Origin: a virus
Taxonomy: Duplodnaviria > Heunggongvirae > Uroviricota > Caudoviricetes
Virus record (IMG/VR): IMGVR_UViG_3300035520_000484
Coordinates: 98,993 to 162,992 of that record
Reading direction: 5' to 3' (one strand)
DNA length: 64,000 nt
Shown: piece after piece, positions 2,837-64,000 of the stretch
Position numbering within the stretch: the stretch's first letter is position 1
Layout of the letters: each line of letters starts with the position of its first letter
Position numbers and translations under genes: made by a program
The notes under the pieces: generated by a model
What the model was told of the DNA's origin: nothing
What the model saw: the letters and a program-made list of their open reading frames with translations, nothing else
Database searches by the model: none

Positions 2837-3691
2837 TTATAATAACTCTCTTAATTCGTCACCGTATTTAGATTTAATTTTAGCAAGTGCCTCACATTCT
2901 ATTTGTCTAGCTCGCTCATATCCTATTCCAAAACGACTTGCAATTTCTTTAAATTGCATAGAAACCATTCCTATACCAAAAGTCATTCTTAATATGTCTC
3001 GTTCTCTATCAGGTAAACTATCAATCATTATTTCTATTTCTTTAGAAACACTTGATTGAATAACATTTAAATCAGAGTTTTCAGCATTTTCATTAGGTAT
3101 AACATCAAGTAATGTTCCTGCTTCTTCATCTTTAAAAGGAGTATCAAATGAGACAGAGCGACTACCAGAAGATAATGTGGCACTAATTTTACTATTAGGT
3201 AAATCACTTAATTCTTCTATTTCTTCAACAGAAGGATTTCGTAATTCCTGTTGTTCAAACTTCTCAGAAACCTTATTAATCTTATTATATAATGAAATAT
3301 AATTCATTGGCAATCTAACAGTTCTACATTCTGAAGAAATAGATTGCATAATTGCTTGTCTAATCCACCAAACAGCATAAGATATAAATTTAAATCCCCT
3401 AGTTTCATCCCATAGATAAGCAGCTTTCATAGCTCCTTCAACGCCACTTTGAATTAAATCAACTAAAGGAATACCTTTATTCTGATATTGTTTAGCAACA
3501 GAAATTATAAATCGGAGATTCCCTTCTACTAACTTCTTAGCAGCAGAGGAATCTCCGTCTTTTATTTTATGAGACAATTCTATTTCTTCATTAATATCAA
3601 TCATTGGAATCTTAGATACTTCTCTAAACAAAGAAGCTAGAGAAGCATCTTGACGATCCGTTATAGATTGAGATATTTTTAAAGGTCTCAT
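2837..3691 (-). CDS. Sigma-70 family RNA polymerase sigma factor (phage-encoded).
   Basis: Region 2: NLRFIISVAKQY...LVDLIQSGVEGAMKAAYLWD...FKFISYAVWWIRQAIMQSI. Region 4 helix-turn-helix: LPDRERDILRMTFGI...KEIASRFGIGYERARQIECEALAKIK. Confidence 0.8.
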   Translation of the reverse strand: MRPLKISQSITDRQDASLASLFREVSKIPMIDINEEIELSHKIKDGDSSAAKKLVEGNLRFIISVAKQYQNKGIPLVDLIQSGVEGAMKAAYLWDETRGFKFISYAVWWIRQAIMQSISSECRTVRLPMNYISLYNKINKVSEKFEQQELRNPSVEEIEELSDLPNSKISATLSSGSRSVSFDTPFKDEEAGTLLDVIPNENAENSDLNVIQSSVSKEIEIMIDSLPDRERDILRMTFGIGMVSMQFKEIASRFGIGYERARQIECEALAKIKSKYGDELRELL

Positions 3692-4867
3692 TTAAAATGA
3701 TAAAATATTTTTTACTGAAAAAATATAATCAAGTGAACTAATGGATTTAATTGGTTTCTTTTTCATAATATGACTCAATTTCTTTATCAGACATTAGATT
3801 TACATTTATTCCATTTAAACAAAGAGTATCAGTAAACATATTATATTTTAATATAAGGTCTTTTTGACCAGTACTATAAACAATAAATGGTTCAGATTCT
3901 CTAAGTAAATATCCTACTGGCAATAAAGTATTCTCTTTTTCTTTAAGAGATTTTATTACTTCTTTATGTATTCTTTTAAATGCTTGAACTTCTTGAATAA
4001 AACCATTAACTATATTTAGTTTTGCAGTAATAGGATTTCTACACATCCATAAGGCTTTCTTAAAATACTCTGGTTTAAGAGTGTTTCCAAAAAGTCTTAT
4101 ATTACCTTCCCAAGTACCATACATATTAGTTCTTCCTTCAGGATAAGCAAATACATCAGTCTCAATAGTAAGTTTATCTACTTCATATTCATCCCAAAAT
4201 GGTTCATCTGGAATGTAATCCTGAGGTTTAATTAAATGAACGTCTAAAGTAATATACTCTTCATCATGATAAAGGTCTACATTAATTACTTCTCCGTTTA
4301 AATAACTATAATAAGATGGTCTAAAACCTGATTCTTTTAAAATAATCATCCAATCAGTTAAAGTCATATCTCATCTAAAGTCCAATTATTAGACAATACA
4401 GCATCTACATAAAAACTCTTTACTTTATAAGTAAGAAATTCTTTACCTGCAGGAGTGCAAATAATTTCTCCTTTTTCATTAAGTTTATAACTACGTGTAT
4501 GCCCATCTAATGTAAGTGAAACAGTTAATCCTGCTTCAATATATGAAAGTGCTTCTTGAAAATTAAATGTTTCCATCAAATTAAAGTTATTGATCAATAT
4601 ACTTAAGTGTTAACATCCATGTATGGCTTTCATTATCTGCAACTAAATCTAGAAGTTCACAATAATTTAAAGATTCAACAATTCTAGAAATTTGGTTTAA
4701 ATAGAAAACCCAATTAAAGTCTCCCATAATATCACCACCAGTAATAGTGATTATACAATTAGGATATCTATCACAATTAATACTCTGAACAAATACTCTA
4801 TATAAATCTAAGTCAGAGATAGTTTTTAATATTTCTTTTTTTATTACAAGAGGATTAGACATAATTT

Positions 4868-46114: not shown

Positions 46115-46282
46115 TTAGTCTAGACAAATTGTGTCAGTGACTACCTCAGTTACCGTATCAGAGGATACTGTATCAACCATTACAGAATCAGTAGTTTCTT
46201 CACTCGTTGCTGTTTCAGAAGGACGACAAGCAACAAAAGCTGTACTAAAGATAAGCGCACAAAACAAAATTAACTTTTTCAT
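46115..46282 (-). CDS. Small secreted or lipoprotein-like peptide (55 aa).
   Basis: MKKLILFCALIFSTAFVACRPSETATSEETTDS... has a signal peptide with lipobox-like AFVAC. Below the ORF-track size cutoff. Confidence 0.3.
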   Translation of the reverse strand: MKKLILFCALIFSTAFVACRPSETATSEETTDSVMVDTVSSDTVTEVVTDTICLD

Positions 46283-46316
46283 ATCCATTTAAATTTAAGT
46301 TAAACAATAAAGTTAG

Positions 46317-46388
46317 TTGTCTCATCAGGATTTGAACCTGAAATAGCAGAACCAAAATCTGCTGTGTTGCCGATTACACCATGAGACA
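46317..46388 (-). tRNA. tRNA-Gln (anticodon UUG).
   Basis: Acceptor TGTCTCA / TGAGACA. D-arm GTGT-AATCGGCA-ACAC. Anticodon stem GCAGA / TCTGC with loop TTTTGGT. T-arm TCAGG-TTCAAAT-CCTGA. Confidence 0.75.
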
Positions 46389-54117: not shown

Positions 54118-54191
54118 TGCCCAATAGTATAAAGGTTTAATTACGACGCACTCTAAATGCGAAAATAACAGTTCGAGTCTGTTTTGGGCGA
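54118..54191 (+). tRNA. Amber suppressor tRNA (anticodon CUA), reading UAG.
   Basis: Acceptor TGCCCAA / TTGGGCG. D-arm GTA-TAAAGGTTTAAT-TAC. Anticodon stem ACGCA / TGCGA with loop CTCTAAA (C32 U33 C34 U35 A36 A37 A38). T-arm AACAG-TTCGAGT-CTGTT. Discriminator A. Preceded by the hairpin AGTGGGA-atct-TTCCCACT. Confidence 0.8.
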
Positions 54192-54193
54192 CT

Positions 54194-54690: not shown

Positions 54691-55449
54691 TTAATAATGT
54701 TTAGCAGGTACTGGAGCACCTTGATATTGAGTAAACTAAAATCTTGAAGGACCATATGAAAGATTACCAGTGTCTGATAAAGGAGCTAAAGTAGCAGCTG
54801 CCGCATCAGAAGCTCTTTCATCAATACTCTTACTTAAACTACTAGCTTGAGAAGTAGCGTAGCTAAAAGGTGCAGTAGGAAATCCTGCATATCTCTAATA
54901 AGCTCCAAATGTAGGACTAGTTGAATATCCGTAATGTCCTGAAAGACTAGGAGTTTGAATAGTTCTATATGAACTAAGACTAGGTGTAGTTATTTCAGGA
55001 AGTGTTGAATTATCAAAAGCAGGTTCAGAAACATCTGAAGTTGTTACTTCATTAGGAGTAGATGATTTAACAGTAGATGACGTAACAGATTTACTAGTAG
55101 AGATACGCTATCTAGGCTTTAATCTAGTATTAGCAGTAACATCATGAGTTTTTAAATATGTGTCATTTGCAATTTTATTATCTAGTTCTTCATCTGCTGC
55201 TGTATATGTATAATCATCAAACTATTCATCACCTTTAATAACATCTCCTGCTTTAGGAGTTCCTTTAAATAATTTAGTACTTTTAGGAGTTACCCATTCA
55301 TCAGGAACTTCAATTACTTGTCCTATTTTTAATTTAACACTAGGTGTATGGTTAAGCTCTACTAATTTATTGTATTGCCCCCCCCTACCTGTTAATGCTT
55401 TGGCAATACCCCAATAGGTATCGCCTTTTTTAATTATGTACTTTGCCAT
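54691..55449 (-). CDS. LysM-domain protein with a Ser/Thr-rich C-terminal region. Four in-frame TAG codons.
   Basis: N-terminal AKYIIKKGDTYWGIAKAL...YNKLVELN...LKIGQVIEVP is a LysM domain. Reading continues through TAG at 55222 to TAA at 54691. Confidence 0.6.
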
Positions 55450-55562
55450 TTTGTTTTAATTTATTTTAATTTATTTAATTTATTTTACCACCATATTTCT
55501 TCATGTGTATAAAAGGACATAGCCTAATTGTTAATCCTCTTATTTTATTTGTTCTTAAAGTT

Positions 55563-55935
55563 TCAATAGCCTAAAGTATATCTTATATTAGGTATTCTTT
55601 CGGTTATTGGTTCAATGTTAAAATAATCCACAATAGAAGTTCCGTTCTCAGGAGATTCAAATATCATATGAGACGCATCTCTACCATATGCATGAGGCAC
55701 CTTAAGTTTTTCAAGATAGCTATTAGTATTAAATAAAGACACGGAGTTTAAATTTTTAAACATGCCGTCATTCCCTGTATGCATGCCATTAGCATTTATT
55801 GTAATATTTGACGAAAATCTAGGAAATCTCTAACTCCACCATGTTTCTATAGGGCCTTTAGGATTTATGGTCTTGGGAGTATACAAAGCGGTTTTGTTTC
55901 CATACTTCTTAGACCATATTGGATTAAATACAACA
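55563..55935 (-). CDS. Hypothetical late protein (one in-frame TAG). Start overlaps the upstream stop (ATGA).
   Basis: Open with TAG as sense: MNVGNPDVVFNPIWSKKYGNKTALYTPK...W(TAG)RFPRF...MHTGNDGMFKNLNS.... Ends TGA. Confidence 0.5.
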
Positions 55936-57016
55936 TCTGGATTACCTACATTCATATAATACATTCCGTTTTTCCTTCGAAAGTTTTTCCTTGGATAACA
56001 GAAAACGCATTTATTAAATCTTCTTTTGATATATTATTGGGAAGGTTCATCCTTCTTAAGAATGTGTTAGATTGTTTCATTAAGTCTTTAACATAATCTT
56101 CAAGATTTATTATATTCCCATTTCTATAATCATTTGCTATTTGCTGTAAGTACTACGGGGATTCTTTAGCTATATTATACAATACTTTATTATCTTTAAT
56201 AGTCTAAAGGTCTTGAAGATATTGATCGGATGCATTTCTACCCTATTCTAATCCGTCTTTTATATTTTGTAAAGTTGATTCGTCATTAAAATAAAAATCT
56301 CCTTTAGGAGTAATTCTATACTCATTTTCTAAAGCCTATAATTGAGGATTAAGTTCTCTTATTTGGTTTAATGATATATTAACAGGTTCTCCATTTCTAT
56401 TATATTTTTGAGAAAATTGGCGCACTAAAGAAGGATCTTTTATATATTTAAGAAACCTGCCTCTAATATAAGGATTTCTTAATCCTCTCCTTCCTTGTTT
56501 GTTCATATTTTTAGCTAACCACCATACATCTTTAAAATTACGAGAAGTTCTAGCAAGAGCACTTACTCCTTTACCTAAATACTACATACCTTTAGTTGTA
56601 ACATAATCTTCTAAACCTGTGTATGGGGCAACTAAATAGAATAAATCATTACTCTATTCTAAAGGAGCCTCTGATAAGAACGCTCTTTTTCTTGTATTAT
56701 TACCCCATATATCTGTATAGTTAAATCCATTAGCATCCTAAGTAAGTAATGTAGGTAATTGCCAAGGAACAGTGTTAGGATTAACTCCTGTTGTTACTGT
56801 TCCTGCATTTCTTGATTCTGGCTAAGTAATATGAACTATATTTCCATTTACATCTGTATAAATCTCATAATCAGGATTACTATCAAGAACTTCCTATACT
56901 GTTTTTACATTACCATTTGTATCTACAATTTCAGTTATATTTCCCCAATCAGATATATCTTTGACTTTTCTTCTAAAAAGACCGACATTTTTAGTATCAG
57001 CATTATCAAGTGTCAT
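55932..57016 (-). CDS. Hypothetical late/structural protein (about 12 in-frame TAG codons).
   Basis: Open with TAG as sense for about 361 codons: MTLDNADTKNVGLFRRKVKDISDWGN...ECII-stop. Start overlaps the end of the upstream gene. Confidence 0.55.
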
Positions 57017-57758
57017 ATTGTCTAGAATTTTTAAATCGTTGTATTACAGAACCTTGTTTCGCCATAGGAAGAATGTCAGAGGAATCATTCTAAGCTACTT
57101 CATTAAACAATTTTATTAAATCTTTATCTTCAAACATATCTAATTTAAATAGGTTGATTGCATCTCTATGAGAATCTAGAAATTTCTAATCAACAATTTG
57201 TTCTGGTTTCATTTTAGTTGCGTACCTAAATTCCATCATTCGAGAATATATTTCATTAGGATCTAACAAATATTCTGCATTATCACTACTCCATCCATCT
57301 TTTGCTTTAGCTGTCTATTCGATTTCACCAATAGCATATATTTGAGGATTAGCTCTCATAGCATGGGTATATTCATGAAGTTCTGGATACGTATACTTCT
57401 CTTCTTTAAATATAGGAGGTCTTATATGAACTTCATGCTTACTAGGACTGTAATATCCTAAAGCTAATCCACCATCCCAATCGTGGAGTGTATCATTATA
57501 AAGTTTAGCAGATGCAGCATTTTCTATTTGACTATAGAAATTCTTATTTACATAAGTTCTTCTATTAAAAGAATTTGCTCTAGCCCATTCTTTCTACGGA
57601 ATGTTATAAGTATCACGAGAAGTAAAATGAAATATTCCTCCTAAATTGTTATATAACTAAGCTCTTCTGTGATTTAACCAATTAGCTAGCCATTCAATAG
57701 TTTGACTATCACTTTTAGGAGGTTTATAATTAGAAATAGGTGTAGTATAATCTGACAT
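57006..57758 (-). CDS. Putative zincin-like metallopeptidase (HExxH), late gene with six in-frame TAG codons.
   Basis: MSDYTTPISNYKPP...YTYPELHEYTHAMRANPQ... contains HEYTH. Ends TGA. Start overlaps the TAA of the upstream gene (TAATG). Confidence 0.5.
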
Positions 57759-59274
57759 TATTGTTTTTGTTGATTATTTAATAAATACATTCCTCCTGAA
57801 AATATTCCTACTTTCATCATAGCTTCTTTTGCTTTAGAAACTATTTCATTTAATTTAGGATACTTTTTAGCTAACTCTGTTAATTCTTCAGAAGATGCGA
57901 ATAATAAGTTATCAGTATCTATTCCTGTAATATTAGAAATTTCTTTAATTATAGATGAAGTATAAGGCTAGTCTATTTCCATTTTTAAAATTTCTCCTGA
58001 AGGAGTATTTTTGATAACTTCATCTAGTTCTTTTCCAAAAATCAGATTTAGGGATTCCTGCTTTTCCGCTTCAGTAAGATTAGAAGGTCTTTGATAGAAA
58101 GAATAGTTAGCTTTAGGAGTATTAGATACTACTCTTCTAAATCCATAATTAGGTTCCCATATATAAGCAGAAGTATTTTCAAGATTTAGCTAATCTTCAG
58201 AGAATGGGATCCTTCTTCCTGACATATCTCTCTTAGCTACCCGTGCATTTTTTGTAGCAAATTGTAAAGGTTCTCTAGTTACTAAAAGTCCTGGATGACT
58301 AGCATCAATTCCATTAACTATATCACCATCATACCATAAACCTCCCTATTTAAACATTGGATTGTCAAAGGTTTTACCAAAATCGAAAGTTCCAACATTC
58401 GTTTCTACTAAATTAACATTTTCAGTATTAGGATAATCTACTCTAACCTTCCTAGAATTTAAAAAATCTTTAACTATATTTGTAGAACCCTATCTATAAT
58501 TTAAATTCGGGTCATTTATTTCCACATCACCTGAACGATATCTCATCTTAGGAGCTAAGTCTGGAGTTTCTACCTCTCCTAATGGCATTCTACTAAGTTT
58601 ATATCCAAGTATAGATGGCTTGACAGCATTGTAAGAAATCTGTCCAACTCTATTTAGAAATGGAAGACTACTACCTCCAACTACAGAACCTATAAGCTAT
58701 CCTAAATATGGAGAATCATACTATTCCCCAATGTATCTACCACCTTCTCCTCCAATCCATGATCCTATTAATGGTTTTACTCCAATATTTCCAAATAACC
58801 CCAGCAGTCCAAGATCAATAACACCAGATATAGCAGCATTATTAAGTACCTACTAATATCCAGGTATATTATAAGCTCTCATTAATTGCCCCTGTCCACC
58901 TCTAAATAAACTACCAATGAAAGGTACATAGTCTGTAGAATGTGACATAATTTTATCTCCATTTTCTATATTATTTTTTATCTATTCCTTTTCTCTCATA
59001 TATTCTCCAGCCTATTCTTGAGATTGCTTCTAAGCATCTGTTCTATTATCCTAAATTACTTTTCCAGTAGACTACAACTATTTTTTAGGAACCTCTACAT
59101 ATCCATTTTCATATGGAACTCGAGTTACAGATGCATTATGTTTAGCTTCTGATTCTTTAGCTATGTTATATGCAAGTAATCTCTACTCAATATTTATAGG
59201 AGCGGTAGTATTATCAGATAATTCTTTTTGTACGAAAGAGTTTTTAATAATTGGTTTTCCCATATATATTATTT
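57758..59274 (-). CDS. Hypothetical late/structural protein, about 505 aa, Gly-rich hydrophobic segment. About 17 in-frame TAG codons.
   Basis: Open with TAG as sense: MGKPIIKNSFVQKELSDNT...GVIDLGLLGLFGNIGVKPLIGSWIGGEGGRYIG...LLNNQQKQ-stop. The ORF track shows only tiny fragments here. Confidence 0.55.
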
Positions 59275-59279
59275 GCTAT

Positions 59280-60045
59280 ATCTTTTTCTAAAATTTTCAA
59301 TAACATTAATTATTCTACCGCCATATTTATAAGACATATTATTTGCGTACTGATGGATAGTTTCTACATATCCTTTTTCTCCAGAATTAATTTGATTTAA
59401 AGGGATTTTGAACATGTTGATAAGAATATCTTCATCTATATTAGTATCCCATTTATTATAATCAGATTGATGCTTTTTATATTGATATTTAGCATCTTCT
59501 GTTACCCTATCAACATCCCATCCAGATTTTTCCCAACCTTTTAATAATGCAATATAAGGACTATCATCAAAGTATCTCCAATTACTGGTTATAAGAGAAG
59601 GCCCGATACTATCTGGCGAATCCGCATAAATCCAATGGCGAGGAGTACTCTTTCCTAAATAATATCTATTAGATCTGCCAGGATCTGTAGCTCCCGAAGA
59701 CTCTTTAATAGCTATAGCTAATCCCTATTTAGGAGATATTCCAGTAGCTTGTGAAGCCTGTACAATTTTATCAAATACCTCTATAGGTATGTTATAAGTT
59801 CCTCTGCCTTTAACAGTAACAGGTTTAGTTTTACCAGAAAGTTGAATAAGCTGTTTTTCTTCATTATTTATTCTATGAACATATGTAGTAACCGCTTTAT
59901 CAAAAGTTTTTTTAAATTCTGGAGAAGATTTATATTTCTAATATGTGGAAAATTTTATAAAAGGAAATAAAATATACTTTTTTAATCCACCTCCTGAAAG
60001 CCATATTTCATCATTTGATTCATTATGAATATATACTTGTTCCAT
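59280..60045 (-). CDS. Late protein, possibly lysozyme-like (ES motif). One in-frame TAG.
   Basis: MEQVYIHNESNDEIWLSGG...IVQASQATGISPK(TAG)GLAIAIKESSGATDPGRSNRYYLG... Start overlaps the upstream TAA (TAATG). Confidence 0.45.
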
Positions 60046-62030
60046 TATTTAAGTTTTCCTCCTAATTTAAATATTTTTTCAGAGCTTGCGTATCTTTCAG
60101 GAACGTTTACTTCATACCAAGTATTACCCTTTGGATCAGTTACTATAGAAGGTTCTGTTCCAAATAATTTCTTAAACTATTTAGGAAAATCACTATACTT
60201 TTTCAATATAGTTTTGTGAGCATCAGTATAATCTTCTATTTTTGGAACTTCATCCATCATTTGTCGACTACGCATTGTATAGTGATCAAAGATATTCTCC
60301 ATAACATCAGCAGTTCTTTGATCTCTTACATAATTTAGCATGTACTTATCTAAGAGTGTTGTTAAGTCCCCGTCAGTATATGGATCTTTTAATAACGATC
60401 TATAATAATTAACTCGATCTTTGTTTGTAGGATTAGTCTATAAAAATTCTATAAATTTTGTTATCCTAGGATCATTTGCGTATTTAGGATTCTCTTTGAC
60501 TAGATTTAATAAATCAGAAAGGTATCCATGATTATTTACCACATCTTTAAATTTACTTGCTCTCTCATTTAAAAATTCGTACTATTTTTTCTATCCAGGT
60601 GCCCATTGTGGAATTTCCTGAGGTTCATATCCTTCTACAGTAATAGCAGTTTCACGAGTAGGGTAGCGCATTGTTTTATACCCACGTGTGGAAGCGAAAT
60701 CAAGATTTTCTTGTAAGTGTCTGTCCAAATAATTTTTAGCCATATACTCACTAATAATATTTTTTTCTTGATCTTTAGGAGTATTTTTATTAAACCATTG
60801 TGCCCAATCACTTTGTGTTTCTGGAACATATAATACACCAGGCTCATCATATGTAGTAAAGAATCTAGAATGACCAATAGGAGCGCTGTTAAAATGATTA
60901 GTACTACCTCCAACAGAGGGATTATTAAAAGTAAGACTGTATATTTCTTTTACACTTGGATCAGTAGGAAGTTTACCATTTTTTGATGCATCATACCCTC
61001 CTCCATATCGTGTTTTGTGAATTATTTCTTGTCGTGATGGTGCCTTATATCCTAATTCTTTCATTCCATATGCAGCCCATGTATCTTCAAGACCAATATC
61101 TTCATACGAAGGAATTAATTCTGATACTTCCTTTCGTAAATCATTATAATCTATAAACTTATCAGCAGTATGATTTGCTAAAACTTGAGAAATCAATTCT
61201 TTATCTACTTTTGAAACTTCTGGCTTATTTAAATACTATTGTAACTATTTAATAGAAATAGTCCCTTGTTTAGATAATTGTTTTTCTAACTAAGATCCTC
61301 TTGCTAATGATTTAGGCATATAAGCTCCAGGAATTTCCTATATTTTATAAGGTTCTGGAGTAAAATACGGATTAGTTTGACCTTTTGTAAATAATGTTGT
61401 GGGTGTAAAACCATTTGCAACATATTCACCAGTCAAAGGAGTATTATGTAAAACATTACCCATATAACCATAGCCAGTATATTTACCTCCTGATACTCCA
61501 CGTAATGCTTTAGCAAACCAATTAGTATAGTCACTACTTGAACGTGTCATAGGAATTGCTGATAACGCAGTCATTACACCATTATACAAAGAGGGATCTT
61601 TTACAAACTCTTTACCATTATCATATAAGAAATATCCAGAAGTTCCAAGATTAGCAGTTGTGCCTAACCAAGCAGGGGCACCTATCAAATCTAAATAAGT
61701 AGAAGGAGTCATTAATGCTCCGACATAAGGAGCTGTAACAGCACCTAATCCAGCAGCAGCTGCACCTAATGCTTGAGTACCAAAGAAGTTCATCCAACTG
61801 TTTTGATTAAACTAGTTATGCACTCTTTCATCAGCTGCGGCTTTCTCTGTTATTCTAGCGTCAGATTTTTCTAATTGATTGGAAGAGTTTGGAGTAACAT
61901 CAGAACTCGCATATTCTATTCCTCCTGTCTATTCACCAGTATTAGGATTGTGTAAAACATAAGGCTCAACAGGCCTACCTGACAATTTTCCAACAAAAGA
62001 GCCAAGTCCTACTTTTTCTTCTTCACCCAT
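60045..62030 (-). CDS. Large late protein (about 660 aa, 9 in-frame TAG codons). N-terminal Gly/Ala-rich hydrophobic domain paralogous to gene 36613-38577.
   Basis: Continuous frame from ATG 62030 through track ORFs 61338-61793 and 60591-61196 once TAG is read as sense. [64 protein letters not shown] aligns to the paralogue. Confidence 0.7.
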
Positions 62031-62230
62031 TATTCAGTCTTTATATTTTTAAATATACCAGTAACAGAATCTATTCCAAGTAATAAACAGATTGCATAAA
62101 TAAAAGTGTCAATCATTTCAGGAGCTTGTATTCCATTAATGGTACAAAAGATTAATACACCAATAATTACTAAAAATCCAATGACACCACACACTCTTTT
62201 AGAAGATATTCCTGAGTGTGAGGTGACCAT
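62030..62230 (-). CDS. Small membrane protein (2 TM), holin-like.
   Basis: 66 aa: GVIGFLVIIGVLIFCTINGI and FIYAICLLLGIDSVTGIF. Its TAA overlaps the ATG of the downstream gene. Confidence 0.45.
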   Translation of the reverse strand: MVTSHSGISSKRVCGVIGFLVIIGVLIFCTINGIQAPEMIDTFIYAICLLLGIDSVTGIFKNIKTE

Positions 62231-62247
62231 TTTCTTTATAAATTCAA

Positions 62248-62805
62248 TTAATTTCTACATTGTATAAAATCTAACAATAATAGTTCTTTATCAGTAGTTG
62301 CTTCAGAATTATGTTTCTTAGCAAACCACCAAGGCCAAAAACAATATTTAGAGTTCATAGATGAAATATACTAATCATAAAAAGATTCATCATAAGGAGA
62401 TTCATATAATCTTTTCCAATCAAACTTTCTAGTAAATTGCCAGAAAGTAATATTAGGAAAGGTTTCAATTATATATTTAATAAAATCAACAAATAAATTT
62501 TCTTGTCGACTATCTTCTTTAGATGTTTCTAGAATTAATCTAATAGTACATCCACCCATATCATTTAAATATTTAAAATAATCAACTACATTACCTTTAT
62601 ATTTAGCTATCCCATGACAGAAATAAGGATTCATATGTTTATCAAATCTGATTCTAAAATCAAAATCCCTAATTCCATATTGTTCATATTGTTGTGCTAT
62701 AGTTTTAGATTGACATTTAGCTATCCAATTAAATGGATAAATCCACCAATTTTTTAAAGGTAGATATGTAGCTGAATTATGAGTTCCTATTCTCATTAGA
62801 TACAA
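62248..62805 (-). CDS. PLC-like phosphodiesterase (PI-PLC X-domain-like). One in-frame TAG.
   Basis: MRIGTHNSATY resembles the PI-PLC active-site motif PGTHDS. A second His sits in FCHGIAKY. Reading continues through TAG at 62371 to TAA at 62248. Confidence 0.4.
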
Positions 62806-63053
62806 AGAGCTGACCAGCCAACTTGAGAACCAACTAAAGCTAAAACTGCATCAACTAATAGCATCTTCCATGTAGGAACTGAATCAAAATCTGAGGATTT
62901 AACTTTATGGAAATATCCTACTAACATAGAAAGAATAAATCCAACTATCATAGCAACTGCTACTACTCCTGTATTAGCAAGAATACCTGCTGAAACAAGT
63001 GCTGTTGCTAATGTAAAAATCATATTATTCTGTACTTTTGTATTTTTAAACAT
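62796..63053 (-). CDS. Small membrane protein (2-3 TM), holin candidate.
   Basis: 85 aa, hydrophobic segments IFTLATALVSAGILANTGVVAVAMIVGFILSMLVGYF and LLVDAVLALVGSQVGW. Sits between muralytic and phosphodiesterase genes. Confidence 0.45.
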   Translation of the reverse strand: MFKNTKVQNNMIFTLATALVSAGILANTGVVAVAMIVGFILSMLVGYFHKVKSSDFDSVPTWKMLLVDAVLALVGSQVGWSALCI

Positions 63054-63059
63054 AGTTTT

Positions 63060-64000
63060 TTATTTATTATAATTTAAAGAATTTTGTAAAATCTTTGCTC
63101 TTTTTGATACATTCATAACTCTATCATAATACCCATTTGCATTATTCCATCCTGATACTGCTTTTTGTATATTCATACCTCTATCTAGATAATTTCTAGA
63201 TAATATAAACATAGTAGCAATTGCAGCTTTTACAGGATCAAATAAAGAGTCTTTAGTAATCCCATATCTTCTAAATAATTCTTTAGTGGTTTTGTCTAGG
63301 TTAGATAATCTAATTTGTGTTAAACCTATAGAATTATTATCTCCATTAATTCCATATGTTTTATATTTAGAATATACATCAGGAGAACTTGCACTTCCCA
63401 TTCCAAAAACTTTGTGCGCTACTTTATTTCCAAACCTTGCTAAATTATCAATAGCAGTATGTTGTTTACCATAATTAGACTCAACGCCTAATATACCTAA
63501 GGCTGCCTAAGCTAATTGAATATAGGTATCATTATTAATACCTAATTCTTTCTAAATCATAGTTTTATATCTAATTAATCCTTTAGAAAAATCAGTATAT
63601 ACTTTCTTTTGATGATCATCAAGTCCTTTTGTACTAAAATGAATAGTTTTAATAGGAGTGTAATCTTTTTCATGATGACTTGGAGTTAAATTAAGATCAT
63701 GAGATTTAAAAGAAAGTTTTCCATTTCTAACAGCAAATTTATTATCTGAATTTACAGGTAGAATATATGTAGGCACATTCTCGTATCCTTTCAATAAATT
63801 ATTTAGTGTTTGTAGATCTTCTTTTGATAACCCTGTGCATCCATTAGTATTAGCACCTACAACACCAACATCACCAACATCACGTGCATGTATAGAAGAA
63901 GGTATACCTTTTGGATTATTTTTGTCTACCATAGCTTGAGTCCTTCTTATAAATGAAGGTGCCCCGCCATAAGAACCACTACGAGTAGTAAAATAAACAC
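63060..64000 (-). CDS. Muralytic protein with a C-terminal soluble lytic transglycosylase (SLT)-like domain. Partial; continues past the window end. Three or more in-frame TAG codons.
   Basis: ...LGVESNYGKQHTA...GSASSPDVYSKYKTYGINGDNNSIGLTQIRLSN... has the ES catalytic motif and GLTQI (compare GLMQI). The frame is open upstream to position 64000. Confidence 0.55.

Follow-up and report, generated by a model that had tools for sequence, protein, structure and literature searches.

Near its end, the window analysed here (the whole stretch of 64,000 nucleotides of phage DNA) carries what we tentatively read as the middle of a late envelope-attack island, gated by TAG codons decoded as glutamine, in a crAss-like phage of ~163 kb that resembles the Zeta group. 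In the same joint reading, which we hold with slightly less than even confidence, the island would serve as a lysis cassette, a small membrane protein (D) would act as its holin, and a PI-PLC-like phosphodiesterase (hereafter, the PLC) would be an accessory. The host likely belongs to the Bacteroidota. Among viruses of the human gut, crAss-like phages rank first in abundance; to our knowledge, no lysis gene has been characterised in the crAss-like order, and the ways in which these phages enter and leave Bacteroidales are mostly obscure.

A TAG-recoded late operon

When TAG is read as sense, the minus strand carries the four genes that a sequence-only reading had described, namely, A, B, the PLC gene, and D. 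Three results support the glutamine decoding on which that description relied: a suppressor tRNA with anticodon CTA was detected by ARAGORN (54118..54192, plus strand), homologs of the PLC carry Q in the column occupied by its TAG codon, and ORF lengths rise sharply once TAG is treated as sense. Late gating of translation by TAG codons is supported, and the CTA suppressor tRNA would let late genes that bear TAG, A, the PLC, and D among them, be translated at full length. Chance ORFs were ruled out because homologs and conserved residues were found, with 39 database homologs and ~2,700 cluster representatives by profile search for the PLC, and 671 homologs for D.

The four genes had been presented as a candidate cassette whose members are all coupled by overlapping stop and start codons. 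Such overlaps do link B to the PLC gene (TAATG) and the PLC gene to D (13 nt), but A and B are separated by 6 nt, and rather than standing alone the four genes form the central part of an operon that spans at least 13 kb. Contig L010, which matches the window with 0 mismatches over 2,180 bp, carries this operon further upstream and adds two more peptidoglycan hydrolases and a protein bearing the crAss cargo protein C1 motif. The joined operon runs from the C1-motif protein through an NlpC/P60+glucosaminidase protein, a glucosaminidase fused to a 2-TM module, A, B, the PLC, and D to E and further genes. Gene E (60045..62030, minus strand), delineated from gene structure, encodes 661 aa with 10 TAG codons, is translationally coupled to D by a second TAATG overlap, and may specify a cargo-like protein. 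Its Gly/Ala-rich N-terminal module also occurs in the gene at 36613-38586 (58% identity over 139 aa); E had no match in Pfam or PHROG, and none by tblastn in phage records. The rest of the TAG-rich late operon (54691..60045, minus strand) encodes F (258 aa), G (501 aa), H (250 aa, with a HEYTH motif), and proteins of 354, 133, and 252 aa, the last being a LysM protein (37.7 bits). Megablast of the 54-64 kb region against 50,697 phage records returned no match.

Gene A (63060..64000, minus strand, TAA stop) runs off the window and contains in-frame TAGs at 63552-63554 and 63507-63509. The large protein with a C-terminal SLT domain that had been proposed is borne out in its domain, but the window holds only the C-terminal 313 codons (59%) of a 532-aa protein. 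Read at full length from L010, A comprises a weak PG_binding_1 domain (17.4 bits, under its cut-off), a YkuD domain (24.2 bits) with an inserted LysM (59.3 bits), and a C-terminal SLT lytic transglycosylase domain (PF01464; 22.8 bits at full length and 24.3 bits for the window part, both above the Pfam cut-off of 21.3). The catalytic Glu-Ser and GLxQ motifs are both seen, as 'GVESNYG' and 'GLTQI'; they are separated by ~50 residues, a long spacing for SLT domains. A tblastn search with A in phage records gave no match.

The two small membrane proteins were delineated by hydropathy. Gene B (62796..63053, minus strand, no TAG) encodes 85 aa with ~3 TM segments, as foreseen, in the form of a 39-residue hydrophobic block with room for two helices and a third segment; the C-terminus falls within the last hydrophobic segment. 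B is known from two loci only, its homolog in L006 (41% identity) lying downstream of the PLC. Gene D (62030..62260, minus strand) encodes two TM segments, as proposed, but its earlier length of 66 aa applies only from the second ATG; with the TAG at codon 2 (62255-62257) read as sense, D is 76 aa long and ends in KNIKTE, with a net C-terminal charge of +1. Searches of Pfam, NCBIfam, and PHROGs returned no holin family for either protein: B matched only phrog_26616 'lipoprotein' (E 0.038) and D weakly matched phrog_1322 'membrane protein' (E 5.6e-4). B had no match by tblastn in phage records.

A conserved island core and its relation to cargo proteins

The island, consisting of a C1 motif, a hydrolase, and D, was found in 59 of 74 related contigs of 95-190 kb, with the C1 motif upstream of D in all 59. 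D lies at or near the island end in the 74 related loci; a recognised peptidoglycan hydrolase occurs within four genes upstream in 43 of them and directly upstream in 25, and a strand switch follows within three genes downstream in 50. The conserved core in relatives is the C1 motif, a peptidoglycan hydrolase, and D; A, B, and the PLC turn up sporadically, as accessories. Furthermore, the hydrolase type varies among relatives (SLT, NlpC/P60+lysozyme, glucosaminidase, or GH24+SLT) and D stays constant, a swapping typical of lysis cassettes.

The location also agrees with published annotation. In the Zeta crAss-like phage Lera, genes listed as 'cargo protein 1, endolysin, holin, hyp, SLT' are divergent from exonuclease V, and an 87-aa 'holin' directly follows the endolysin, which is the commonest position of D (PMC12386605, Table S1). 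Compared by gene order and annotation, and with functions in Lera that are themselves computational annotations, the two islands share the spot divergent from PDDEXK/exonuclease V (an arrangement also found in L004, L006, and L007), the opening C1-motif gene, a membrane protein of only ~80 aa encoded after a peptidoglycan hydrolase, an SLT protein, and recoded stops in the lysin and holin genes, in keeping with the lysis-type location first suggested. Lera differs in recoding TGA and has no PLC-like gene listed, whereas the window phage has three hydrolase genes in its island, the extra gene B, and 7 kb more of TAG-rich genes in the same operon.

From its recurrence in the island (59/74) and the synteny with the endolysin/holin/SLT genes of Lera, D emerges as the island's conserved small membrane protein and best holin candidate. 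Both D and B are small, have at least one TM segment, and are encoded close to peptidoglycan hydrolase genes. The description of both as holin-like holds for their size and TM segments and, in the case of D, for its position after a peptidoglycan hydrolase in relatives; it is weakened by the lack of a known holin family and by the sporadic occurrence of B. The homologs of D are 67-100% identical across the top 120 clusters, an unusual conservation for a holin that counts against this assignment. A partnership of D with the large protein downstream, considered in view of L099 and the D/E overlap, was rejected because D usually ends the island in the 74-locus survey.

The first gene of the operon points in another direction. 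Residues 41-93 of its product, g121 (121 aa), are 66% identical to residues 371-423 of crAss001 gp45 (cargo protein C1), and g121 shows 73% identity with the corresponding gp45 ortholog in bajarodcaudo virus, which is annotated as a 'tail lysozyme'. By eye, this ortholog also contains an SLT-like 'ES...GLLQW' stretch. Comparable known proteins are gp45 itself and ejected transglycosylases of the T7 gp16 type; elsewhere among crAss-like phages, SLT or lysozyme domains are found fused to this motif. Ejection ahead of the DNA has been proposed for crAss001 gp45/gp46 and is known for T7 gp14-16; the island could similarly be an ejectosome, in which virion cargo made up of the hydrolases, proteins of the E/G type, and perhaps the PLC would cut peptidoglycan and breach membranes at entry, the PLC then being an injected enzyme that attacks the membrane. 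We consider this unlikely, though it deserves weighing. The motif itself favors it, as do the matches of the NlpC/P60 domain in PHROGs, which are mostly tail or virion proteins, and a PLC gene in L031 that is flanked by a portal-like gene on one side and, on the other, by the gene for an SLT protein ending in the C1 motif. Judged by eye and not by statistics, a basic N-terminus and hydrophobic stretches rich in Gly/Ala, as in gp45, recur in L006_463, L181_644, E, and G, and the island's commonest hydrolase has the same basic start and Gly/Ala-rich stretch, a build that would suit an ejected protein and an endolysin equally. Moreover, cargo proteins require no signal peptide, and gp45 is expected to form a transmembrane channel (PMC10172136). 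However, BLASTP of the island proteins against gp45/gp46 found nothing beyond the ~55-residue motif of g121, and neither the gp45 portal-binding domain nor full-length C1 homology was found in the island. The island is also located away from the structural block and has its own transcription, on the opposite strand in Lera. As integral membrane proteins of strong hydrophobicity, D, B, and the 2-TM module were judged unlikely to be stored in a capsid. This envelope-attacking island may serve lysis, entry, or both: entry, named alongside lysis in the sequence-only reading, draws some support from the C1 motif and the C1-like build.

A minimal PI-PLC-type enzyme and its genomic contexts

The PLC gene (62248..62796, minus strand) encodes 182 aa from an ATG at 62796, the start used by homologs, and has an in-frame TAG at 62371-62373 (codon 142), upstream of D176. 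The active-site motif noted earlier proved to be part of an intact catalytic set, H6, R48, H61, and D176, plus D46. Across 184 family members, H6 is conserved in 96%, D46 and R48 in 100%, and H61 and D176 in 99%. The D-x-R...HG block was aligned with FDIRGR...HHG of Staphylococcus aureus PI-PLC, and D176 was equated, by position and not by superposition, with the Asp that pairs with the first His. A TIM-barrel PLC-like fold was found for the protein, the structure model being that of P0002, a sequence 74% identical to the window PLC. We predict a catalytically competent PI-PLC-type phosphodiesterase that is metal-independent and acts via a cyclic phosphate, since an Arg replaces Ca2+ ligands at the phosphate site.

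Homology was revealed by a single route, a search of the family profile against PDB sequences (E~1e-8). The window PLC had no Pfam match at E<=1, ten relatives scored 13-22 bits or nothing against PF00388 (gathering threshold 23.1 bits), and PHROGs and NCBIfam contained no family for it. A literature search on crAss-like phages and phospholipase found nothing relevant. The PLC resembles bacterial PI-PLCs (Listeria PlcA, 2plc; Bacillus and S. aureus PI-PLC; PI-PLC-X) in 'GTHNS' (versus 'GTHDS'), 'FDxR', 'HG', the C-terminal Asp, the phosphate-site Arg, and an aromatic segment, NWWIYPFNW, aligned to helix B (W17 84% and F22 61% conserved). Unlike these enzymes, it is phage-encoded, scores below the Pfam gathering threshold, and carries Asn where they have Asp beside the first His. 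Bacterial PI-PLCs are ~300 aa long and secreted with a signal, so the 182-aa PLC lacks ~100 residues that form loops and helices; nearly all family members measure 170-210 aa. With its catalytic His at residue 6 and a maximum 17-residue hydropathy of 0.9, the PLC has no signal peptide or TM segment.

Members of the PLC family occur in crAss-like phages of the Suoliviridae and others, and a scan of viral contigs with the single PLC protein found nothing; pattern scanning worked with a 16-sequence subset of the 39-sequence alignment, which was too divergent as a whole. Only 3 of the 74 homologous islands contain a PLC. Proteins 31-44% identical to that of the window lie inside or beside the island, at differing positions, in L103/L104, L123, and L007 (islands of 4-6 kb, genomes of ~170 kb), and the PLC genes of this clade have 1-5 in-frame TAGs. 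In IMGVR_UViG_3300045988_073177, the D island sits at one end and the PLC gene ~80 kb off. Elsewhere the contexts are unrelated and often concern nucleotide metabolism, many copies adjoining dUTPase, DUF3310, polymerase, or glycosyltransferase genes: that of cr130_1 is TAG-free and adjoins a dUTPase gene, those of L014/L015/L016 have polymerase, primase-type, and DUF3310-like (by eye) genes around them, and in L009 a GT2-like glycosyltransferase gene follows. A survey of 44 PLC lineages found no neighbouring family common to more than five and no conserved lysis neighbour, and small TM neighbours occurred at 11%, the background frequency; a family-wide link to lysis genes or small TM proteins was rejected on these grounds. 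Bacterial or prophage copies that might name the host were also sought, yielding only MAG contigs, the majority of which are probably mis-binned phage; one homolog, in L011, has an apparently bacterial Bacteroidales MAG context.

The PLC could be a passenger with no part in lysis or entry: a phosphodiesterase of the cytoplasm whose target would be a precursor of host lipids, some soluble phosphodiester, or a signalling molecule (host takeover or counter-defence), with its position reflecting the island's tolerance of insertions. The heterogeneous family context, the absence of shared neighbours, the lack of a signal peptide or TM segment, and the L011 homolog all fit, and the island does gather further accessories, A, B, and HNH-like genes for instance. 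The recurrence of divergent PLCs in or beside the same island argues against this possibility, to which we give no more than modest weight, as does the aromatic-rich, partly conserved region aligned to helix B.

Proposed envelope disruption and probable host

In the lysis cassette that we favor, D would permeabilise the inner membrane late in infection as a holin, and its holes would let the hydrolases that lack a signal, including A, reach the peptidoglycan. Accessory or regulatory roles in the membrane would fall to B and the 2-TM module; from their hydropathy, the small D and B appear built for the membrane of the infected cell. The PLC would be made in the cytoplasm, at full length only with TAG suppression, and would use a His/His acid-base pair, a phosphate-stabilising Arg, and an Asp partner. 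Most likely, its aromatic segment resembling helix B would serve for docking on membranes, and it would cleave a phospholipid whose head group bears a vicinal hydroxyl, Bacteroidales inositol lipids being obvious candidates; both the lipid substrate and the membrane binding are read only from the homology of this segment to helix B in bacterial PI-PLCs. Its contribution would be to speed envelope breakdown as an optional accessory, not as an obligatory spanin equivalent.

The adjacency of these genes had suggested a putative outer-membrane disruptor in place of spanins. A simple lipobox pattern scan of all frames in the window and L010 revealed no spanin-like lipoprotein in the island. The one exception involves an internal Met of the 2-TM module, and its Cys is missing in relatives; two lipoprotein genes lie far off, in a TAG-free region. 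Mycobacteriophage LysB, spanins, and disruptin embody the same concept, a dedicated factor for the outer lipid layer beside an endolysin and a holin. LysB is a cutinase-like esterase that acts on mycolyl-arabinogalactan, and spanins are membrane-anchored fusogens; the PLC differs from both in fold and chemistry, has nothing to anchor it in a membrane, and is a component that most related islands do without. A phage enzyme of the same PLC-like phosphodiesterase superfamily that is used against the cell envelope is the C-terminal domain of phage K gp155 (9f49), a GDPD virion protein.

GDPD domains of this kind are found in staphylococcal and lactococcal phages, and the PLC would be an accessory wall degrader cleaving glycerol-phosphate teichoic or lipoteichoic acid if the host were Gram-positive. 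Some Zeta crAss-like phages have been computationally assigned to Lachnospira, Holdemanella, and Faecalibacillus, and NlpC/P60+glucosaminidase, LysM, and YkuD architectures are common in Gram-positive lysins. We nevertheless regard such a host as very improbable: predictions for the group are mostly Bacteroidales, the PLC family occurs in Suoliviridae and other crAss-like phages, and relatives with the C1 motif infect Bacteroides. In addition, the PLC is nearer to PI-PLC than to GDPD, with no obvious GDPD metal-ligand set in the alignment.

Bacteroidetes make both PI and inositol phosphoceramide (PMC9246714). A bolder proposal, which we consider improbable, is that the minimal signal-less PI-PLC family of gut Bacteroidales phages, with its ~2,700 representatives, cleaves these host lipids and has been repeatedly recruited to this island for envelope disruption, either as a last lysis step replacing spanins or as an injected membrane-breaching enzyme.

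A conserved island of C1 motif, hydrolase, and D is now defined in large Zeta-type crAss-like phages, with a concrete holin candidate, and a large uncharacterised family of half-size PI-PLC enzymes is flagged in gut phages. Should the PLC be a passenger, the island would be an ordinary, though gene-rich, lysis or entry cassette. Few bacteria make inositol lipids, and the likely hosts of PLC-bearing phages belong to these few; if the PLC cleaves such lipids, it would represent a new kind of phage envelope effector and also a compact tool enzyme for the study of bacterial inositol lipids.

A recoded operon of at least 13 kb

With TAG read as a sense codon, all four genes proposed in the sequence-only reading were present on the minus strand, namely, A (63060-64000, continuing past the window end), B (62796-63053, 85 aa), the PI-PLC-like phosphodiesterase gene, called PLC here (62248-62796, 182 aa from the ATG used by homologs, TAG as codon 142), and D (62030-62260, 76 aa, TAG as codon 2). 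The true stop codon was TAA in every case. An upstream TTG was set aside as the PLC start, since homologs start at the ATG. The proposed coupling through overlapping stop and start codons was found at B/PLC and D/E (TAATG) and in a 13-nt overlap of PLC with D, whereas A and B lie 6 nt apart. The window part of A exceeded the Pfam SLT threshold (24.3 bits), in agreement with the domain previously assigned to it, and hydropathy profiles revealed a 39-residue hydrophobic block plus a third segment in B, two hydrophobic segments in D, and none in PLC.

A public 5.7-kb contig (L010), identical to the window across the shared 2,180 bp, added 3.5 kb upstream. Read from this contig, A is 532 aa long, and its domains are PG_binding_1 (weak), YkuD split by a LysM, and the C-terminal SLT. 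Three genes precede it, encoding, in transcription order, a 121-aa basic protein (g121), a 366-aa protein with NlpC/P60 and glucosaminidase domains, and a 256-aa protein with a glucosaminidase-like domain and a C-terminal 2-TM module; ahead of these, a PDDEXK nuclease gene lies on the opposite strand. Past D, in the downstream direction, the operon runs unbroken through E, F, G, H, and further genes as far as that of a LysM protein at 54691. A-B-PLC-D thus forms the central part of an operon spanning at least 13 kb rather than a four-gene unit. The 2-TM module (phrog_38535) exists in relatives as a free-standing gene of 73-80 aa, which adjoins PLC in the related contig L006 and in cr130_1, where it is labelled 'putative lipoprotein'; its fusion to the glucosaminidase-like domain (L010 2148-2918) may yield a membrane-tethered hydrolase or a hydrolase-holin-like fusion.

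Among the downstream genes, H (57006-57773, minus strand) carries a zinc-peptidase-like HEYTH motif, and F (59269-60045, minus strand) contains a stretch, 'AIKESSGATDP', that looks similar by eye to the lysozyme-like 'LHESGGDPKA' in the gp45 ortholog of bajarodcaudo virus; H and F both had no match in Pfam or PHROGs. The N-terminal module of E (60045-62030) shares 58% identity over 139 aa with that of an isolated minus-strand gene at 36613-38586, which holds 15 in-frame TAGs amid TAG-free genes and whose C-terminus, unlike that of E, carries a metalloprotease-like HEFGH motif. Both look like polymorphic proteins with a common N-terminal module and variable C-terminal effector domains.

The window has a G+C content of 30% and is coded almost entirely on the minus strand. 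Between 54.7 and 64 kb, ORFs are short under the standard code and become long once TAG is read through. In-frame TAGs are concentrated in this region and in the 36613-38586 gene, while the replication, nucleotide, and tRNA genes of the first 54 kb are nearly devoid of them. Together with a suppressor tRNA of anticodon CTA (54118-54192, plus strand) and the presence of Gln at the PLC TAG column in homologs, the read-through ORFs make the assignment of TAG to Gln well supported. This pattern fits the published description of recoding as a gate on late genes in crAss-like phages (PMC12386605). The tRNA(CTA) is the only clear plus-strand gene of the window and marks the exact border where the TAG-rich late operon meets the TAG-free block; it aligned poorly with the phage's own tRNA-Gln(TTG) (46316-46388) and is thus not obviously derived from it. 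Codon 63507-63509 of A is TAG in the window and TAT (Tyr) in the near-identical contig L003, a natural TAG/sense polymorphism in a recoded gene, with a Gly/Cys difference four codons downstream. The replication genes include one (2837-3691, minus strand) for a complete sigma-70 family protein, in which regions 1.2, 2, 3, and 4 all exceed their Pfam thresholds.

A conserved island and its possible role in lysis or entry

Homologs of D numbered 671, the top 120 being 67-100% identical. We surveyed 80 IMG/VR loci with D homologs on contigs of 95-190 kb and counted the 74 with at least four upstream genes. A gene bearing the C1 motif, common with cargo protein C1 (gp45) of crAss001, lay upstream in 59/74, a divergent PDDEXK gene was present in 54/74, and a strand switch followed within three genes downstream in 50/74. 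Recognised peptidoglycan hydrolases were encoded within four genes upstream in 43/74 and directly upstream in 25/74, both lower bounds because few query proteins were used to recognise them; another island encodes a 653-aa protein with SLT and GH24 lysozyme domains. An adjacent second small TM protein was seen in 30/74, and PLC within the island in only 3/74. The core of the island is thus the C1 motif, a hydrolase of variable type, and D, with A, B, and PLC as accessories. Endolysin-holin pairs typically show this combination of a changing hydrolase with an unchanging small membrane protein, and the holin-like label once given to both small proteins fits D better than B, although neither matched a curated holin family.

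The C1 motif (about 55 residues, IKKxNxGKFT...RAxFAxNAxKW) repeatedly accompanies peptidoglycan hydrolases, whether as a small stand-alone protein heading the island (L010 689-1054), inside crAss001 gp45 (residues 371-423), or as a C-terminal fusion to an SLT protein (L031 6575-7345).

The window phage resembles the Zeta group of crAss-like phages in size, recoding, and synteny. In the Zeta phage Lera, Table S1 lists cargo protein 1 (102 aa), an endolysin (695 aa), a holin (87 aa), a hypothetical protein, and an SLT protein, the genes being divergent from exonuclease V and followed, on the other strand, by a ferredoxin-thioredoxin-reductase gene (PMC12386605). Contig L006 has the same flank, and its island comprises a C1-motif gene, an HNH-like gene, a 221-aa gene, a 463-aa glucosaminidase, D, a 2-TM 73-aa gene, PLC, and B before the strand switch. 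L004 carries a C1-motif gene, a Zn-finger gene, an NlpC/P60 and lysozyme protein, a 258-aa gene, a 2-TM 89-aa gene, PLC, and D, while in L007 PLC is convergent to the hydrolase operon. The gene order in these relatives and the shared flank indicate that the window phage holds an island homologous to that of Lera.

The earlier proposal of a lysis cassette is reasonable and in line with the published annotation of Lera, and we tentatively rank it first. That the island encodes virion proteins ejected at entry ranks second and appears rather unlikely. Over its residues 41-93, g121 shares 66% identity with residues 371-423 of crAss001 gp45, a virion cargo protein proposed to leave the particle first and to contribute to a transmembrane channel (PMC10172136), yet the similarity is confined to this one motif. 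The gp45 ortholog of bajarodcaudo virus 1 is annotated 'tail lysozyme' and shows, by eye, an ES...GLLQW stretch after the motif, and a reading of sequences by eye, not statistical, found N-termini that are basic and hydrophobic segments rich in Gly/Ala, both recalling gp45, in E, G, and two island proteins of related loci, L006_463 (the commonest island hydrolase) and L181_644. However, a capsid is not expected to contain membrane proteins as strongly hydrophobic as D, B, and the 2-TM module, and the Lera island lies on the strand opposite the structural block. A mixed island serving lysis and entry is possible.

A compact PI-PLC family and its surroundings

Neither Pfam nor PHROGs gave a recognised match for the PLC-like protein. 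An index of 5.8 billion proteins contained 39 homologs, and a profile search of 1.84 billion representatives returned 2,697 matches at E<=1e-3 (430 at E<=1e-30), almost all stand-alone proteins of 170-210 aa. Against the PDB, the family profile matched the PI-PLCs of S. aureus, Listeria, and Bacillus at about 1e-8, pairing 'AKCQSK...FDxRxR...HG' with 'AKTQDK...FDIRGR...HHG'. Residues conserved among 184 members (H6 96%, N7 91%, Q29 100%, D46 100%, R48 100%, H61 99%, E90 95%, P155 99%, D176 99%) match in alignment the catalytic inventory of metal-independent bacterial PI-PLC, including an Arg where eukaryotic PLCs bind Ca2+. Since TAG142 precedes P155 and D176, a standard-code product would be without part of the active site. 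The AlphaFold2 model of a 74%-identical homolog (P0002) reached a pLDDT of 91. In BFVD, the sole close match was an uncharacterised protein of crAss-like phage cr128_1. The PLC-like protein falls about 100 residues short of the bacterial PI-PLCs and, unlike them, lacks a signal peptide. Helix B is the interfacial membrane-binding element of the Bacillus enzyme, and the stretch aligned to it is aromatic-rich (NWWIYPFNW) and partly conserved in the family (W17 84%). We regard the PLC-like enzyme as genuine and probably active. Its domain assignment is not new, as a 46%-identical homolog is already named 'PI-PLCc protein' in one GenBank record.

Zeta crAss-like phages are for the most part predicted to infect Bacteroidales, with Firmicutes predicted for some, and phages sharing the C1 motif have Bacteroides hosts. 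Bacteroidetes differ from most bacteria in that they make phosphatidylinositol and inositol phosphoceramide (PMC9246714), from which we infer an inositol lipid as a natural candidate substrate. A simple lipobox scan found no spanin-like lipoprotein in the island, which permits but does not demonstrate a role of PLC as spanin substitute; outer-membrane disruption is of modest probability, one possibility among several. Two genes in the TAG-free region close to tRNA genes (44604-45416, 270 aa, and 46115-46288, 57 aa, both minus strand) encode predicted lipoproteins, each with a signal sequence and a lipobox Cys, which could act in superinfection exclusion or be spanin-like proteins whose genes lie at a distance from the island.

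PLC recurs in the same island, with shuffled partners, in contigs of 146-171 kb. Across 92 PLC-centred loci, representing 44 lineages at 70% identity, no neighbour family was present in more than 5 of the 44, and small TM proteins occurred at -1 in 5/44 and at +1 in 5/41, equal to the 11% background. Many copies sit among early or nucleotide-metabolism genes, such as dUTPase (cr130_1 group), DUF3310-like (by eye), polymerase, and primase-type genes, and one contig has PLC about 80 kb from the D island. Genes 31-44% identical to the window's PLC nevertheless recur inside or beside the island at differing positions (L103/L104, L123, and L007), which counts against pure chance, and in L031 PLC adjoins the SLT protein bearing the C1 motif. 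PLC genes contain one to five in-frame TAGs in the window's clade and none in cr130-type copies.

In an 84-kb non-crAss-like phage (L009, 9808-12009), PLC lies between tail-fibre genes and a 490-aa GT2-like glycosyltransferase, hinting at a role in cell-surface modification in that lineage. A family member about 42% identical to the window's was found at 3156-3809 of CAAEXK010000323.1, an apparently bacterial Bacteroidales MAG contig, among ordinary-looking bacterial genes by eye (Crp-like, DUF488-like, CAT-like, and AraC-like); host chromosomes may carry members of the family as well.

The island belongs to a known type of gene group, and the phage PI-PLCs, half-size and lacking a signal peptide, form an uncharacterised variant within a known type of enzyme. 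In our reading, the biochemical activity of this family is general, and its pairing with envelope-attack genes is specific to some lineages.
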